Positions 20,334 to 56,693 are shown, counted from the first letter of the stretch. The stretch is DNA of 64,000 nt from a virus (IMGVR_UViG_3300013104_000019:23474-87473), one strand, 5' to 3'. A program made the numbers and translations. Notes: generated by a model not told the origin, from the sequence alone.

Positions 20334-20354
20334 ATATTCGAAGGAACAATAATG
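20334..20354 (+). promoter_or_regulatory. ATTCGAAGGAA leader motif, copy 1
   Basis: atATTCGAAGGAACaataATG. Confidence 0.45.
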
Positions 20355-20636
20355 AAAGCAATTAGCACGAAAGGACTCATCCTGCGCATGGCCCTTGCCT
20401 TCGCAGTCGTAGTGGTAGTGTTGCAAGCTTACCCGGCACATGCCGGTGAGTTCAGCTATCCGGGACAGAATCTCGGCAAGATTTTCCAGCAGGGCGATAT
20501 TGCTGCCCAACAGAACAAACACCTCATGCCGAACCCCATCGCGCCCATTGGTCGGGTTCGTTATCACGAGCAGCATCAAAACCTTTCTCAGCAACCGAAC
20601 GCCGATCTGATCGAGCAGAACAAACCGAAGGAGTAA
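20352..20636 (+). CDS. small secreted protein (signal peptide)
   Basis: Trimmed to MKAISTKGLILRMALAFAVVVVVLQAYPAHA (signal peptide), preceded by the ATTCGAAGGAAC motif plus RBS. Confidence 0.5.
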   Translation: MKAISTKGLILRMALAFAVVVVVLQAYPAHAGEFSYPGQNLGKIFQQGDIAAQQNKHLMPNPIAPIGRVRYHEQHQNLSQQPNADLIEQNKPKE

Positions 20637-20641
20637 GTATC

Positions 20642-20998
20642 ATGAGCGATACGTTTAGCCCGTTTGCACCGTCGCTGACGGATGAAGAGAAGATTGCACG
20701 TGGTCGGGAAATCTTCGAAGACATCATCAAGAACGTCCCCAGTAAGAAGGAAACGATCCCGATCCTTGCGTGGGTGATCGTTGCAACGTCGGGTGAGTTG
20801 CCGATGATGTTCTTCAAGGAAGATAAGACATGGTCGGGTGACGTCAAGGACGCCAAGCAGAGCACGATCGATGAATGCGTGGCGAACTACACCCAGATCA
20901 CGCAAGAACAGAATTACCCGTCGATTTATCAAGGTGCAGAAACCAAAATCGACATCCGGCCTCTGATTGTGGGTCCGGGCGGCATGGTTAAGCTGTAA
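20642..20998 (+). CDS. hypothetical protein
   Basis: RBS aaggagtaagtatcATG; terminator follows. Confidence 0.55.
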   Translation: MSDTFSPFAPSLTDEEKIARGREIFEDIIKNVPSKKETIPILAWVIVATSGELPMMFFKEDKTWSGDVKDAKQSTIDECVANYTQITQEQNYPSIYQGAETKIDIRPLIVGPGGMVKL

Positions 20999-21001
20999 GG
21001 T

Positions 21002-21035
21002 GAGGGAGGGGACTTTCCCCTCCCTTATTTTTTTC
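21002..21035 (+). terminator. intrinsic terminator
   Basis: gagggaggggactttcccctccc then ttattttttt. Confidence 0.8.
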
Positions 21036-21066
21036 CACAAAACTAAATAAGAGTACGGGGTTGTTA

Positions 21067-21456
21067 ATGGAGTCCACTGTGAGAAAAATTCATTTTACCA
21101 TCATGGCAGTGTGCGCTGTTATCATGATCGGGTTCTTTGCATTACCGGCTCGTGCAGCCACTCAAACGGCCGTAGGAGCCGCTGCTGAGAGCAAGATGAT
21201 GCAATGCACCTACGTGGGTGATTTCGGTGCTGTAGCGGCTAATGTTCGCAAGACGAGTTCGAACTACCACATCTATCAGGTGAAAGTGGACTCGATGGTG
21301 CAGTCACTGCGCGGCCAGTACAAGAACGCTTGGGACATGGCAGATCAAACCGGTCGATATGTATTTCTTAACGGCCATGTAGATCCTCTGACTGCGAAGG
21401 AAGTCCTCTACGACGAATGCATGCATCACCCGGAACGCTTCCGAGTGGTGTATTAA
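21067..21456 (+). CDS. secreted/membrane-anchored hypothetical protein
   Basis: N-terminal hydrophobic segment IMAVCAVIMIGFFALPARA (signal peptide or anchor). Confidence 0.55.
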   Translation: MESTVRKIHFTIMAVCAVIMIGFFALPARAATQTAVGAAAESKMMQCTYVGDFGAVAANVRKTSSNYHIYQVKVDSMVQSLRGQYKNAWDMADQTGRYVFLNGHVDPLTAKEVLYDECMHHPERFRVVY

Positions 21457-21467
21457 GGAGAACAAGA

Positions 21468-22097
21468 ATGAATGAACGACAAATAGCAGGACATATCGCT
21501 TGGACACGAACCGTGAAAGGCGACATTCGTTTCATGGTCATGGACTTCAACAAAATCTTTCCTGACTGTGTGTCGTGGACGGATCAAGTTGGGGAAGCAA
21601 CTGTCTTCCAGGATACGGTGCAGCCTAACGCATACTTCGAGCAGTTGCGCTACGGCCCGACTCGGCGCTTTATGGGCAAGATCTTTCCGCCGATTGCCGT
21701 GGCTGTGGCGTTGGATCTGGACAGTGAAGTGGGCGAATTCGAAGGCTGGTTCGGCGTAAGTCCTTTTTACTTCGAACCCAGCATGCGTGACGCGCAGCGC
21801 TTTACCGTTCAGACAAAGATCGATCCTGATCCGCAGCACAACACCAGCAACGAATCAGCGATTCGAACTATTGCGGAGTTCGTCGAGTATATCGTCGAAC
21901 ACGCGAAGAAAGTTGGGGAAGGAAACTATCTGGTCATCACGCGCGCTGACCTGATTCGGGATTTCAACCCGCGAACTCAATCTGGCGATGCGCGCCGCAT
22001 CATTGAAGCACTTCGAAGCCATCCTCAGGTTAAGGTGCGCGAAGCTTCGCTCAGTGTTGCGGGTGTGCGCATCGAAATCGAATACCAAGGAACCTGA
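21468..22097 (+). CDS. hypothetical protein
   Basis: Trimmed to MNERQ after RBS aaggagaacaagaATG. Confidence 0.55.
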   Translation: MNERQIAGHIAWTRTVKGDIRFMVMDFNKIFPDCVSWTDQVGEATVFQDTVQPNAYFEQLRYGPTRRFMGKIFPPIAVAVALDLDSEVGEFEGWFGVSPFYFEPSMRDAQRFTVQTKIDPDPQHNTSNESAIRTIAEFVEYIVEHAKKVGEGNYLVITRADLIRDFNPRTQSGDARRIIEALRSHPQVKVREASLSVAGVRIEIEYQGT

Positions 22098-22098
22098 C

Positions 22099-22533
22099 AT
22101 GCATCTTCAACTCATCGTCGCTCACGTCGAAGGTCTCGAAGGCGATAAGAGCCAACACCACTACTACTCCGTCCAAGGCTACGATACCTTCTGGACAACC
22201 AAGATCACGGAAGCGCGTTTCTTCAACGGTGAAGACCCGGCTGAAGCGTACGGCGTGTTCGACGGGCTGAAGCGTCAAGCAGAAGTCCACCTCGGTAAGG
22301 ATCTGAAGTCGGGTGAACCGATCCTCGATCCGAGAACCAAGCAACCGATTCACCGCATCAATCTGCCGCTGCATTTCTTCAACCTCGCCAAGCTTTCACT
22401 GATGAAGGACCACACGTATCGGCCGGATGCGAAAGTGTCGGTCTACATCGTCGATGCGAAGTTCGACTTGGAGCCGGCAGGCGACTTCATCTCGTTCAAA
22501 ATCCAACACCCCCAACTCCCCAAGGAGGATTGA
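22099..22533 (+). CDS. hypothetical protein
   Basis: Trimmed to MHLQLIV after RBS aaggaacctgacATG. Confidence 0.55.
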   Translation: MHLQLIVAHVEGLEGDKSQHHYYSVQGYDTFWTTKITEARFFNGEDPAEAYGVFDGLKRQAEVHLGKDLKSGEPILDPRTKQPIHRINLPLHFFNLAKLSLMKDHTYRPDAKVSVYIVDAKFDLEPAGDFISFKIQHPQLPKED

Positions 22534-55267: not shown

Positions 55268-55301
55268 GAACTCCCTCTTCTTCGTATGAGGGTAGTCAAC
55301 C

Positions 55302-55326
55302 TTTTATGAAATTCGAATAAATTAGG
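55302..55326 (+). promoter_or_regulatory. second copy of the (T)ATGAAATTCGAATAA motif
   Basis: ttttatgAAATTCGAATAAattagg, upstream of 55342. Confidence 0.45.
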
Positions 55327-55341
55327 ACCAAGGGGTATCAC

Positions 55342-55653
55342 ATGAGCGCCGTTGCTGTGAAGTGGAGTAATGTCGAATTGCATGGCTTCTGGTTCGTCAC
55401 CAACTTCTTGCGGGAAGAAGGACTCGACGACTTCGGAGTAAAGGCGGTCATGGATGACCTCAACATGCAATACGAAAAATACCGGAAAACACAAACCGGT
55501 AGAAACGACTTCGGGCCGGACTTCAAGTTCGACACCGAATATAAGCCGTACATCGGCAGGATTCAGATGATCGATCCGGTCACCAAGCACTGCTTTGGTG
55601 AGACGCACGTCTGTTTCGAAGACAACGGTGGAGTCTCCATTCTGCCGTTCTGA
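55342..55653 (+). CDS. hypothetical protein
   Basis: Preceded by the TATGAAATTCGAATAA palindrome motif; terminator follows. Confidence 0.5.
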   Translation: MSAVAVKWSNVELHGFWFVTNFLREEGLDDFGVKAVMDDLNMQYEKYRKTQTGRNDFGPDFKFDTEYKPYIGRIQMIDPVTKHCFGETHVCFEDNGGVSILPF

Positions 55654-55663
55654 CCAACACGGG

Positions 55664-55695
55664 GCCCGGTGTGAAAATCACCGGGCTTTATGCCC
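55664..55695 (+). terminator. intrinsic terminator with TTTATGCC tail
   Basis: gcccggtgtgaaaatcaccgggc then tttatgccc. Confidence 0.7.
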
Positions 55696-55719
55696 TTAAG
55701 TAATCTTGGAGCAAAAGAA

Positions 55720-56595
55720 ATGCAGCCCAACAGAAAAGCAGTCTTGTTGTCGGATGAAGAAGCCTGTGCGCGCTATGGCAAAATCATCGAGATGGTCCGT
55801 TGCGGGTCTCGGTTGCTCGCCGCTGACGTGAAGAAGTATCTGGATGAGATCTGCTGGGAACCCGAAGTTATTCGGGAGGCTCTTAACAAGGCGGCCGACT
55901 CAGCTCAATTTCCTTTCGGACGAGCAATGTTCATGGCCACGTTCACGGCAGGGTCAACACTGGCGCTGATCGCTACCGCTCACGTTGATCGACAACCTTC
56001 GCCGCTCTCGCTGACCTTTATGCTTAAATTGGAAGAACGCGAGAATGTGTTCAAGATCAGCAAGCTTCTATCGTACAATCCGTCCCGGCCGTTCGCACCT
56101 CAATGGCAAGATCAGAGCAGGGGGCAGTTCTCCCATCCCCGTCTGGGTGTGATGGAAGCTGGCTACAACCCCGGCCAGCCTTACGGTCCCGGACCTAACG
56201 GCTATCCTGGCTTCCGGACTTCGGTATTCAATCCGGGTGTCGGTTTTGTCAAGCAAAGCCAGATCGATCTGTTGGTGACTTCTTTCGAAGAAATCAAGCC
56301 GTACTTCGAGATCCTCGAAAAGCGACACTTCGATACGCAACACGAGATGGCGATTTTCGAAACCATCATGCAACGCTCGTGTGGTCCGGATCTGCGAGCT
56401 TATTGGCGCTTCAACATGATCGGCCGTTGGGATGAAGGGCAAGACGCCGGTGCTCGACTTCTGCTCGAAACTTACGAAGTGGGACACGAGGGCGAAGAAA
56501 CCAAGATCTCCTCGTATCAGACGGCATTCGGTACTTACCTCGACGGCATTCCGCCCGGACACTCGACGATGCAACCTCCGTACTCGTCGATCTAA
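55720..56595 (+). CDS. hypothetical protein
   Basis: Trimmed to MQPNRK after ggagcaaaagaaATG. Confidence 0.55.
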   Translation: MQPNRKAVLLSDEEACARYGKIIEMVRCGSRLLAADVKKYLDEICWEPEVIREALNKAADSAQFPFGRAMFMATFTAGSTLALIATAHVDRQPSPLSLTFMLKLEERENVFKISKLLSYNPSRPFAPQWQDQSRGQFSHPRLGVMEAGYNPGQPYGPGPNGYPGFRTSVFNPGVGFVKQSQIDLLVTSFEEIKPYFEILEKRHFDTQHEMAIFETIMQRSCGPDLRAYWRFNMIGRWDEGQDAGARLLLETYEVGHEGEETKISSYQTAFGTYLDGIPPGHSTMQPPYSSI

Positions 56596-56611
56596 GTCGC
56601 ACTGTAGAAAG

Positions 56612-56642
56612 TTTCAGTCACATATAACCTTGTCGATATTGG
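56612..56642 (+). promoter_or_regulatory. related motif C (TTTCAGTCACATATAACCTTGTCGATATTGG)
   Basis: Shares the CATATAACCTT core with A and B, and TTTCAGTCACATAT with D. Confidence 0.4.
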
Positions 56643-56660
56643 AAACAGTATCGATCCCAT

Positions 56661-56693
56661 TTACATTCGAAGCAATTAGGAGAGTCAATCATG
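56661..56693 (+). promoter_or_regulatory. leader motif, copy 7 (variant)
   Basis: ttACATTCGAAGcaattaggagagtcaatcATG. Confidence 0.4.

Follow-up and report, generated by a model that had tools for sequence, protein, structure and literature searches.

In phage T4, RegA and RegB act on short single-stranded sites at or near the Shine-Dalgarno (SD) sequence or the start codon of many unrelated genes, most of them early; a single phage protein acting in trans reads the sites, and translation is turned off or the mRNA is inactivated post-transcriptionally. GGAG is the sequence cleaved by RegB; the sites of RegA are rich in A and U and extend over the AUG. The T4-type PeSL cassettes (promoter-early plus stem-loop) are promoter-plus-hairpin units of ~50-70 bp repeated at gene boundaries, where they coincide with gene insertion or replacement junctions between related phages. 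The epsilon enhancer of T7 gene 10 (UUAACUUUAA) lies directly 5' of the SD of one highly expressed gene and has been proposed to pair with 16S rRNA. In the phiKZ family, early (vRNAP) promoters are marked by an extended, AT-rich consensus resembling TTTCARRYAKATATTAY; the TSS follows ~6 nt downstream, and the leader contains an SD. Middle promoters have the motif AAanTTACc near -24 from the TSS and leaders of ~30-40 nt. The phiKZ late consensus is T-3ATG+1, every TATG position being required in phiKZ, where UTRs measure 31-40 nt and leaderless mRNAs do not occur.

Here, we describe a box, TTACATTCGAA, that adjoins the ordinary ribosome-binding site on its 5' side ahead of about one in ten genes of an uncultivated phiKZ-like giant phage. 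The window, the whole stretch of 64,000 nt that was analysed, comes from a phiKZ-like jumbo phage genome of ~244.6 kb, whose closest cultured relative is Burkholderia phage FLC9. Scanning ~96 kb of this genome yielded ~11 copies of the box, mostly ahead of small genes with no assigned function, and most of them within an early-gene-like cluster adjoining tRNA genes. The copies in the window are as follows.

20332-20346, + strand: box TGATATTCGAAGGAA, 5 nt before ATG 20352 of a 94-aa protein with a signal-peptide-like N-terminus
34082-34096, + strand: perfect box TTACATTCGAAGGAA, 5 nt before ATG 34102 (224 aa)
50299-50313, + strand: box CTACATTCGAAGGAA, 5 nt before GTG 50319 (148 aa)
50766-50780, + strand: box ATCAATTCGAAGGAA, 7 nt before ATG 50788 (235 aa)
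51744-51758, + strand: box TGACATTCGAAGAAA, 10 nt before ATG 51769
53093-53110, + strand: box TTACATTCGA-TCA-AGGAA, 9 nt before ATG 53120, box and SD being separated by a 3-nt spacer
54816-54830, + strand: perfect box TTACATTCGAAGGAA, 5 nt before ATG 54836 of a 143-aa protein with an RNA polymerase alpha-CTD domain
55307-55321, + strand: weak variant TGAAATTCGAATAAA, overlapping TATG 55305-55308, 20 nt before ATG 55342 (103 aa)
56661-56675, + strand: box TTACATTCGAAGCAA, with a separate SD (AGGAGAG) 2 nt 3' of it, before ATG 56691 (382 aa)

All nine motif copies listed in the initial annotation are present, displaced by at most 1-3 nt and on the + strand only. Its claim that the motif is placed non-randomly ahead of genes was confirmed, in that eight copies directly precede start codons, well above chance; one of these starts, the ATG at 51769, opens an ORF of just 8 codons in the window, followed by an in-frame ATG at 51805 with its own SD, and the same site in the relative L121 has a full-length, uninterrupted 190-aa ORF. 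With up to two mismatches, ACATTCGAAGGAA matched 8 times against 1.81 +/- 1.2 expected, and 8 or more matches occurred in 0 of 100 shuffles. With up to three mismatches, seven copies of the 15-mer were found, all of them on the + strand, and seven of the nine best PWM matches on the + strand lay within 30 nt ahead of a start codon.

The 15-mer is a composite, its 3' end (AAGGA/AAGGAA) being the ordinary phage SD and its 5' part, (T)TTACATTCGAA, a separate box. That AAGGA doubles as the SD was borne out: 30 of 81 genes use AAGGA/AAGGAG as their SD, at a modal spacing of 6 nt, and AAGGA(A) forms the 3' third of the motif. Because AAGGA serves as the SD genome-wide, only TTACATTCGAA is distinctive. 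Conservation of this part, within the genome and in relatives, reaches beyond the complement of the anti-SD, so the conserved stretch is indeed longer than ribosome binding requires and is not plain ribosome-binding-site context. By contrast, the fixed distance of 8-12 nt to the start that had been proposed does not hold. The gaps from GGAA to the start codon are 5, 5, 5, 5, 7, 9, 10 and 15 nt, a spacing that is usual for SDs throughout this genome, and the box always lies upstream of the SD at a gap of 0-8 nt, the SD shifting along with the start codon. The box stays near the SD despite long intergenic regions (270 nt at 51744, 87 nt at 53093 and ~170 nt at L123:2507); the 15-mer at 53093 (TTACATTCGAtcAAGGAA) carries a 3-nt insertion, and the 56661 box is detached from its SD. 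The invariant core of the box is ATTCGAA, which contains the palindrome TTCGAA. The genes downstream of the 11 boxes are non-paralogous, indicating that the box was not inherited by gene duplication.

An orphan copy of the 15-mer at 49564 (TACATTCGAAacgc) had been taken to argue against a role confined to ribosome-binding-site context. We rejected it as a leader copy, and that argument falls with it.

49563-49574, + strand: orphan GTACATTCGAAA, a helix strand pairing with 49500-49507, not a leader box

The helix is supported by covariation, with a compensatory change in the relative L133, and belongs to a conserved, previously unrecognised structured RNA of ~530 nt that spans ~49165-49700.

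The box is kept at orthologous genes in L121 and L122 (78-88% DNA identity), L133 and L123, where the flanking intergenic sequence has diverged, and it persists in relatives whose proteins are just 34-63% identical (56% for the helix-turn-helix (HTH) protein in L133, 34% for the 382-aa protein in L123). The copy at 53093, ahead of the gene for this 164-aa HTH protein, is the most widely conserved, being present in L121 and L133 and degenerate in L123 and L131. The copy at 50766 is kept in L121 and reads TATTCGAA plus AGGAAG in L123; that at 56661 is the same in L121 and L122 and reads ACACATTCGAAAAGGAAG in L123; and the 55307 variant is kept in L121 and L122, with ACATTCGTA at the same site in L133. 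At some genes the box is dispensable: L121 has none ahead of its alpha-CTD gene, and L131 has a degenerate form ahead of its HTH gene. In phage FLC9, we observed an analogous box, TTACAA(C/G), for which the literature searched gave no description; in 12 kb, each of the six + strand copies stands 16-40 nt ahead of an annotated start, in some cases between TATGCC and the SD. This box shares the position, the TTACA start and the gene neighbourhood (a tRNA cluster and an HTH gene homologue) with the box described here, but it is without the TTCGA segment and is often joined directly to the SD as TTACAAGGAAA.

The phage also carries two promoter-like motifs from which the box differs, an early-type motif (TTTCAGTCACATATTAC) and a TATG-type unit (GC hairpin plus TATGCCNTNAA). 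Judged by their sequence, both presumably act as promoters, and the early-type motif matches the published early consensuses of OBP, N1M2, 201phi2-1 and phiKZ.

50262-50294, + strand: GC hairpin plus TATGCC, a TATG-type promoter-like unit directly 5' of the 50299 box
54784-54810, + strand: GC hairpin plus TTTATGCC, a TATG-type promoter-like unit directly 5' of the 54816 box
56612-56628, + strand: early-promoter-like motif TTTCAGTCACATATAAC, upstream of the 56661 box
56633-56654, + strand: hairpin TCGATA-N10-TATCGA, between the early-promoter-like motif and the 56661 box

Further early-type copies lie at 23628-23644 and 33631-33647. The outer T-A pair of the 56633-56654 hairpin is replaced by G-C in L121 and L122, a compensatory change. 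The distance to the start codon is 25-85 nt from TATGCC and 43-65 nt from the early-type motif. Seven of the 11 boxes lie 3' of a promoter-like motif or inside an operon: those at 50299, 54816 and 55307 follow TATG units, the 50299 and 54816 boxes each beginning 5 nt 3' of the hairpin and TATGCC (50289-50294 and 54805-54810); those at 56661 and L141:3362 follow an early-type motif plus 5' hairpin; and those at 34082 (second cistron behind the motif at 33631-33647) and 50766 (1 nt past the stop codon of the preceding gene) serve internal cistrons. Within L141:3250-3392, TATGCC comes first and is followed in turn by the early motif, a hairpin, the box, the SD and the ATG. From these positions we infer that the box is probably transcribed, and that at genes where other promoter motifs already stand upstream it is not needed as a promoter.

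Among the promoter, operator and RNA-signal options that the initial annotation had left side by side, we therefore favour an RNA-level or translational signal. Our leading reading, tentative and drawn by analogy with the targets of T4 RegA and RegB, is that the box may be a single-stranded 5'-UTR operator through which a set of genes is controlled post-transcriptionally. The box would be transcribed within short, unstructured 5' leaders that start at upstream promoters of at least two classes, and its site of action would be the mRNA, where it would form a single-stranded operator in the region of translation initiation. It would be recognised by a factor acting in trans, conceivably an RNA-binding protein (of the phage or the host), an endoribonuclease with sequence specificity or an RNA that pairs with the box, and this factor would jointly set the translation or stability of the message group. 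Ten leaders folded no better than shuffled sequences (z -1.3 to +1.1) and the box was mostly unpaired in centroid structures, which fits a linear, single-stranded recognition site. As in the RegA/RegB systems, a shared site, predicted to be unpaired, stands at the initiation regions of unrelated mRNAs, here in 11 copies. The systems differ in that the box sequence is unrelated to theirs, that the phage is phiKZ-like rather than T4-like, and that no RegA or RegB homologue was found among ~40 proteins here. Searches of the ~40 proteins in or near the window with Pfam and PHROGs gave no candidate RNA-binding factor, and no complementary RNA partner for the box was found within the window. At E <= 1, Rfam had no match to the leaders in 46900-58400, placing the box outside its curated families; the matches there were two tRNAs, a low-scoring antisense hit to tRNA-Ser and a chance-level intragenic hit (E = 0.62). 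Counting against an RNA operator, four copies (20332, 51744, 53093 and L141:5958) follow terminator-like hairpins, have no other recognisable promoter before the gene and look promoter-like; at 20332, only 9 nt lie between the box and the T-run of a strong terminator (20276-20327, a 12-bp hairpin plus T-run).

These four copies speak for the main rival, which is live though somewhat less likely than the operator: the phage multisubunit RNA polymerases would have a third class of promoter, represented by the box. It would be of the initiator type, overlapping the start site (TTTAC^A, compared with late TTTAT^G), and would give very short leaders that start just 5' of the SD; its role might be to define a 'middle' temporal class or to serve as a downstream specificity determinant. 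A conserved motif that is compact, oriented and gene-proximal is usually a promoter when the phage has its own polymerase, and the box, from a phage of the same family, shares the TTAC of the phiKZ middle motif and has the TTTAYR start common to the late initiator and the TATG unit. The window classes (3 early-type : 9 box : ~12 TATG-type) can be set beside the TSS counts reported for phiKZ (18 early : 33 middle : 66 late). Promoter use by the phiKZ nvRNAP is set by sequence 3' of +1, the determinants of middle promoters being unresolved, and GAAGCAA and GAAGAAA are retained at two copies whose working SD lies further 3'. However, unlike the known family promoters, the box lies 3' of the phage's own early-type and TATG-type motifs, by 5-45 nt at five genes, and at another directly past a stop codon; one gene would stack three 'promoters' within 140 nt. 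The box follows the SD rather than any upstream element, and no conserved sequence lies upstream of it. Leaders would measure just ~14-29 nt, against 31-40 nt in phiKZ, and early (consensus plus 6 nt) or middle (TTAC at -24) geometry would put the TSS at or inside the start codon, where the GTG start of one gene is a poor match to a leaderless mRNA.

By sequence and geometry, none of the three described promoter classes accommodates the box. An early vRNAP promoter would begin transcription 6 nt 3' of it and so exclude the SD; the box has no conserved upstream sequence, and TTTCAGTCACATATTAC at 23628, 33631 and 56612 fits that class instead. As a late nvRNAP promoter it would have TACA, GACA, TCAA or GATA in place of TATG, and true TATGCC units are separate from it, two of them 5 nt upstream of a box. 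The middle-type TTAC occurs in five of the nine window copies, 17-30 nt from the start codon, which would again bring the TSS to the start of the ORF or inside it.

It is improbable that the box has no dedicated function and is a favoured initiation 'cassette', spread by recombination at repeated gene boundaries, with a general A/U-rich enhancer effect in addition. Its position and composition do resemble the T7 epsilon enhancer, both being ~10-nt, A/U-rich, unstructured boxes beside a purine-rich SD; here, however, ~10% of genes share the ATTCGAA core, and the box showed no complementarity beyond AAGGA to a 16S 3' tail, which may not be that of the host. Gene traffic at the boxes recalls PeSL cassettes, which are far longer than this SD-tied box of 11-15 nt: the 148-aa gene behind the 50299 box, absent from L121, lies between two copies with ATTCGAAGGAACTA in common, at a place where L121 has a single copy; the 51744 site in strain L124 has the same box and another gene; and the alpha-CTD gene has the box in the window but not in L121. 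Against this, the ATTCGAA core is invariant at orthologous sites across lineages with 34-56% protein identity while neighbouring intergenic bases are randomised, 40-nt windows around six copies (the 55307 variant and five full boxes) show no change among strains that differ at 1-1.6% of positions, and the copies are no recent duplications, as the spacer bases following the box vary from one to another.

It is very doubtful that a phage transcription factor uses the box as a DNA operator, acting as a roadblock or activator near the gene start. The obvious candidate, the conserved 164-aa HTH protein (gene 53120-53614), would be autoregulated through the most conserved copy (box in the window, L121 and L133; TTACA-type in L123 and FLC9), has Pfam HTH-domain matches below curated cut-offs and is modelled with a three-helix bundle like LuxR or sigma region 4; the palindrome TTCGAA in the box core also speaks for this reading. 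However, no match in the fold search reached significance (best E = 0.05), the recognition helix is the same in L131 and L133 while the box at the HTH gene is kept in L133 only, and the inverted-repeat symmetry, promoter-tied position and free orientation of a dimeric HTH operator are lacking: only 4 of 6 pairs are symmetric in ACATTCGAAGGA, the palindrome is confined to the 6-bp core between asymmetric conserved flanks, all copies have strictly one orientation, and position is tied to the SD, with promoter-like motifs at variable distances (+8 to +45).

Returning to the mRNA operator, the box may well mark a set of co-regulated messenger RNAs, a third promoter type being the chief alternative. 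One variant is that it would be an mRNA 'address' for a phage factor choosing which messages to translate. An equally unconventional proposal, which we consider rather unlikely, is that the box is the missing specificity determinant of a third (middle-type) class of promoters of the chimallivirus RNA polymerases, an initiator/downstream element TTTAC^ATTCGAA that would be read either by the phage polymerase in an alternative form or by the conserved HTH protein of 164 aa. If that is true, the box would be the first sharply defined promoter in phiKZ-like phages that is neither early nor of the TATG type.

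All copies of the leader box listed in the initial annotation were recovered in the window, where eight copies, and a weak ninth at 55307, lie directly 5' of an ATG or GTG. With up to two mismatches, the 13-mer ACATTCGAAGGAA occurs eight times versus 1.8 expected, a number reached in 0 of 100 shuffles, and the 15-mer, comprising the box plus AAGGA(A), occurs with up to three mismatches seven times on the + strand and never on the - strand. The box scan covered ~96 kb of the genome in all, and about 10% of genes carry the box. Outside the window, ~24 kb of sequence coding for capsid and structural proteins yielded no copy. 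Additional copies were located on the segment preceding the window:

L141:3362 and L141:5958, two extra box copies, same genome, 2.7 and 5.3 kb upstream of the window start

Exact 14-mer matches across IMG/VR were discarded, nearly all being chance and the double match in contig L047 being a coding repeat (ITFEGNK). Past the window end, a box-like 11-mer (L137:13724), about 80 nt from the first in-frame ATG, seemed to be an SD-independent copy and was rejected as coding sequence (N-I-R-R), in which the comparison sequence L138 carries CGA>AGA, a synonymous change. At this locus (L137:13707-13815, about 6.2 kb beyond the window end in the same genome), a 383-aa gene ends in TGA-TAA, after which the same frame stays conserved coding relative to L138 for 34 codons up to its first ATG, which reads CTG in L138; the 523-aa gene downstream of the tandem stops probably uses a non-canonical start, the CTG at 13713 directly after the stops. 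Within the window, ATTCGAAG has 13 copies on the + strand and a single one on the - strand. TTCGAA (the BstBI/AsuII site) is present 62 times versus 30 +/- 5.6 expected from dinucleotide shuffles, mostly within genes, probably because TTC-GAA (Phe-Glu) is a preferred codon pair.

A survey of 81 gene starts identified AAGGA or AAGGAG as the usual SD of this phage (30 genes), most commonly 6 nt from the start, and the GAAGGAA-N5-ATG part of the leaders is therefore ordinary. The distinctive part is (T)TTACATTCGAA, in which ATTCGAA is almost invariant, and the sequence upstream of it shows no conservation.

5'-UUACAUUCGAAGGAA-3', the box as RNA

The gap between box and SD is 0 nt in most copies, 3 nt at the helix-turn-helix (HTH) gene and about 2 nt at 56661, whose SD, AGGAGAG, stands apart from the box; in related contigs it ranges from 1 to 8 nt (TTACATTCGAAATAAAGGA and ACACATTCGAAAAGGAAG in L123, TTACATTCGAAATTTAAGGAAC in L133). 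The predicted folds of ten leaders, in which the box is mostly single-stranded, were no more stable than those of shuffled sequence. No antisense copy of the box was present in the window, and pairing of the box or of initiation regions with the neighbouring structured RNA described below was not enriched over that of other genes. Extended pairing with the 3' tail of 16S rRNA was rejected, AAGGA alone being paired, as was a hairpin of the box AUUC with an AUGAAU start, which is confined to three genes and not conserved. Since the invariant part of the box is ATTCGAA, the MazF-type UACAU and RNase E RN|WUU sites falling inside it were set aside as unexplained coincidences.

The proteins encoded behind the box are not related to one another and mostly lack a family assignment, the exceptions being a 143-aa protein with an RNA polymerase alpha-CTD domain, kept in relatives, and a 164-aa HTH protein. 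The former (54836-55267, + strand) matches the bacterial alpha-subunit C-terminal domain PF03118 over residues 80-133 (E = 3.7e-9), which is unexpected in a phage family thought to be independent of the host polymerase for transcription. Contigs L121 and L122, at 78-88% DNA identity, keep the box 5' of the 382-aa, HTH, 190-aa, 235-aa and 103-aa genes, and the alpha-CTD gene of L121 is without it. In L123, where identity of the 382-aa protein is 34%, the box is kept at the 398-aa and 247-aa orthologues and one other gene. At six copies (five full boxes and the 55307 variant), 40-nt windows are identical among strains differing at 1-1.6% of positions. The ATG behind the 51744 box (51769-51805) opens an ORF of only 8 codons, whose TAA shares bases with the SD (TAAGGAGG) serving the in-frame ATG at 51805; its L121 counterpart is a single uninterrupted 190-aa ORF, and the gene versions in strains L124 and L125 differ. 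From the sequence, this may be a nonsense mutation followed by re-initiation, or else a small ORF upstream.

The initial annotation had taken an orphan copy at 49564, with no ORF behind it, as an argument against a mere ribosome-binding context. This copy falls in a 570-nt gene-free stretch that holds the following element:

49165-49700, + strand, structured RNA candidate of about 530 nt; homologues L121:83-649, L133:6567-7173 and L131:4872-5452

The stretch lies between the 200-aa and 160-aa genes, 1.3 kb downstream of the tRNA genes, and homologues occupy the corresponding site in L131 and L133. Identity to L121 is about 97% over the aligned part, or 90% of columns when indels are counted, versus 78-88% for neighbouring genes. 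Its + strand fold has an MFE of -223.9 kcal/mol (z = -5.3), and RNAalifold gave 133 pairs, 29 with compensatory changes. The 5' limit follows a conserved ATTATATG (a TATG-type start), the 3' limit is a GC hairpin plus TATGCC, and a hairpin loop contains an invariant CCUCCUUUC, the same as the anti-SD 3' tail of 16S rRNA. Rfam returned nothing at E <= 1, and the modelled element is possibly a new large phage RNA. The orphan (GUACAUUC) is paired with GAAUGUGC at 49500-49507, and in L133 ACA>ACG in this helix is answered by UGUGC>CGUGC. The orphan is thus a structural strand of a separate RNA and is uninformative on the leader box, so that the argument drawn from it falls.

The window (50-57% G+C) has genes on the + strand to about 58.2 kb and on the - strand beyond, encoding a head maturation protease, thymidylate synthase, dCTP deaminase, tail proteins, an SNF2 helicase and two tRNAs. 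Just beyond the window end there is a PhiKZ-type major capsid gene, chimallin is encoded in the same neighbourhood in more distant relatives, and several metagenomes hold 98-99% identical genomes of 244.6-245.1 kb; the phage is therefore an uncultivated phiKZ-like jumbo phage, and probably forms a phage nucleus. The INPHARED collection contained no DNA-level match, and scanning viral and metagenome contigs with single proteins and with alignments recovered near-identical genomes only. Gene content of close relatives varies exactly at gene boundaries, with an extra 148-aa gene in the window (50319-50765, versus L121:1465-1530) and an extra 85-aa gene in L121 (650-907), between the TATGCC unit and the 160-aa gene.

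Among cultured phages the closest relative is Burkholderia glumae phage FLC9 (46% capsid protein identity), which has an analogous box of its own, TTACAA(C/G). The six + strand copies within 12 kb are all 16-40 nt 5' of annotated starts, as in TATGCC-CTTA-TTACAAC-GTGT-TTACAAGGAAA-TGATC-ATG. In the FLC9 segment (L142, 120727-133041), ACAAGGA has 12 copies on the + strand and a single one on the - strand; seven are 13-17 nt before starts, often as TTACAAGGAAA. The binding consensus of CsrA/RsmA is RUACARGGA, and the agreement of ACAAGGA with its core offers a sequence-level lead for FLC9. As a reading of the box itself, a CsrA/RsmA-like site suits the variant TTACAAGGA of FLC9 and L123, not the TTCGA-containing box, and stays a lead.

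Two promoter-like motifs share intergenic regions with the box. An early-type motif, TTTCAGTCACATAT(T/A)AC, occurs at 23628-23644, 33631-33647, 56612-56628 and L141:3308-3324. It agrees with the consensuses published for early promoters (virion RNA polymerase) of OBP, N1M2, 201phi2-1 and phiKZ, TTTCARRYAKATATTAT and TATATTAC among them. Two copies of the motif are separated from the box by a hairpin, which begins about 4-5 nt past the motif. The second, a GC-rich hairpin followed immediately by (T)TTATGCCNTNAA, precedes about 12 gene starts, including that of the 964-aa tail protein, and is found in all relatives, 25-85 nt upstream of start codons:

13161, 23603, 32542, 38993, 40754, 41555, 48542, 49686, 50289, 54805 and 55689, + strand, TATG units
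43990, further TATG unit (TATGTCC)
near 58250, - strand, further TATG unit

The unit corresponds to the phiKZ late initiator T-3ATG+1 and looks like a fused terminator and phiKZ-type TATG promoter, with a downstream consensus longer than that described for phiKZ. At 50289 and 54805, the box follows TATGCC 5 nt further downstream, and the 55307 box overlaps the TATG at 55305. The 56661 box lies about 33 nt past the early motif at 56612, with an intervening hairpin that shows a T-A to G-C compensatory change in L121 and L122, and L141:3250-3392 carries, in this order, hairpin-TATGCC, early motif, hairpin, box, AGGAG and ATG. Copies 34082 and 50766 are 5' of internal cistrons with no terminator upstream, and copies 20332, 51744, 53093 and L141:5958 have a terminator-like hairpin and no other promoter motif upstream. 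Elsewhere, the divergent intergenic region 35965-36005, between a - strand gene (35185-35931) and a + strand gene (from 36006), contains a 10-bp palindrome, AATTCGAATT, which may be an operator, followed by a T-run.

The position of the box is tied to the SD and not to upstream elements, and the box lies inside leaders starting at two other promoter classes, as assigned by motif. Leaders of phiKZ are 31-40 nt, with no leaderless mRNAs; the phiKZ-family early (start 6 nt after the consensus) or middle (TTAC at -24) geometry would place the box-driven start at or inside the start codon, and by its placement the box fits neither. Together with its single-strandedness in predicted folds, these features favour a role at the RNA level. 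The box would then serve a set of genes as a common operator at their translation-initiation regions, recognised by a protein, a nuclease or an RNA, analogous to the control of early messages by RegA/RegB in T4; we hold this reading tentatively, at somewhat less than even confidence. The main rival, an initiator-type third promoter class, draws on the four copies behind terminator-like hairpins, the likeness of TTTAYR to the TATG unit and the copy-number ratio, and we hold it at somewhat lower confidence. Ranked below both, and improbable, is a recombination-spread initiation cassette without a specific reader. In its favour, boxes fall at junctions where genes have been gained or replaced: the 148-aa gene has a copy on each side where L121 has one, and L124 has a different gene behind the 51744 box. 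Likewise ranked below both, a DNA operator for the neighbouring HTH protein has a slim chance; the box is kept 5' of the HTH gene in L133 (56% protein identity) and decayed there in L131, and the predicted structure of the protein (pLDDT 71.6) gave no significant match in a PDB fold search. A sigma-70 promoter was dismissed, with 10 matches versus 10.0 in shuffles at 44-60 kb and a TTACAT-N17 '-10' that would fall within ORFs.

A literature search for the box sequence retrieved primers only, with no mention in the papers searched, and no SD-adjacent leader box appears in the transcription maps published for phiKZ, 201phi2-1 and AR9. Cis-regulatory leader motifs are already known in phages as a kind of element; this box, its family (TTACA-type boxes of the FLC9 clade) and its chimallivirus-like phage setting are new. 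Were it merely a favoured initiation context, the box would be of local interest only. The box may bear on how nucleus-forming jumbo phages time expression beyond early (vRNAP) and TATG (nvRNAP) promoters, and on determinants downstream of +1 in phiKZ; the phiKZ middle class has a weak motif only, and post-transcriptional control in such phages is almost unexplored. The box is sharply defined, conserved, easily mutated and present at about a tenth of genes, the conserved HTH and alpha-CTD protein genes included, and thus provides a concrete handle for reporters, pull-downs and 5'-end mapping; the cultured relative FLC9 has its analogous box.
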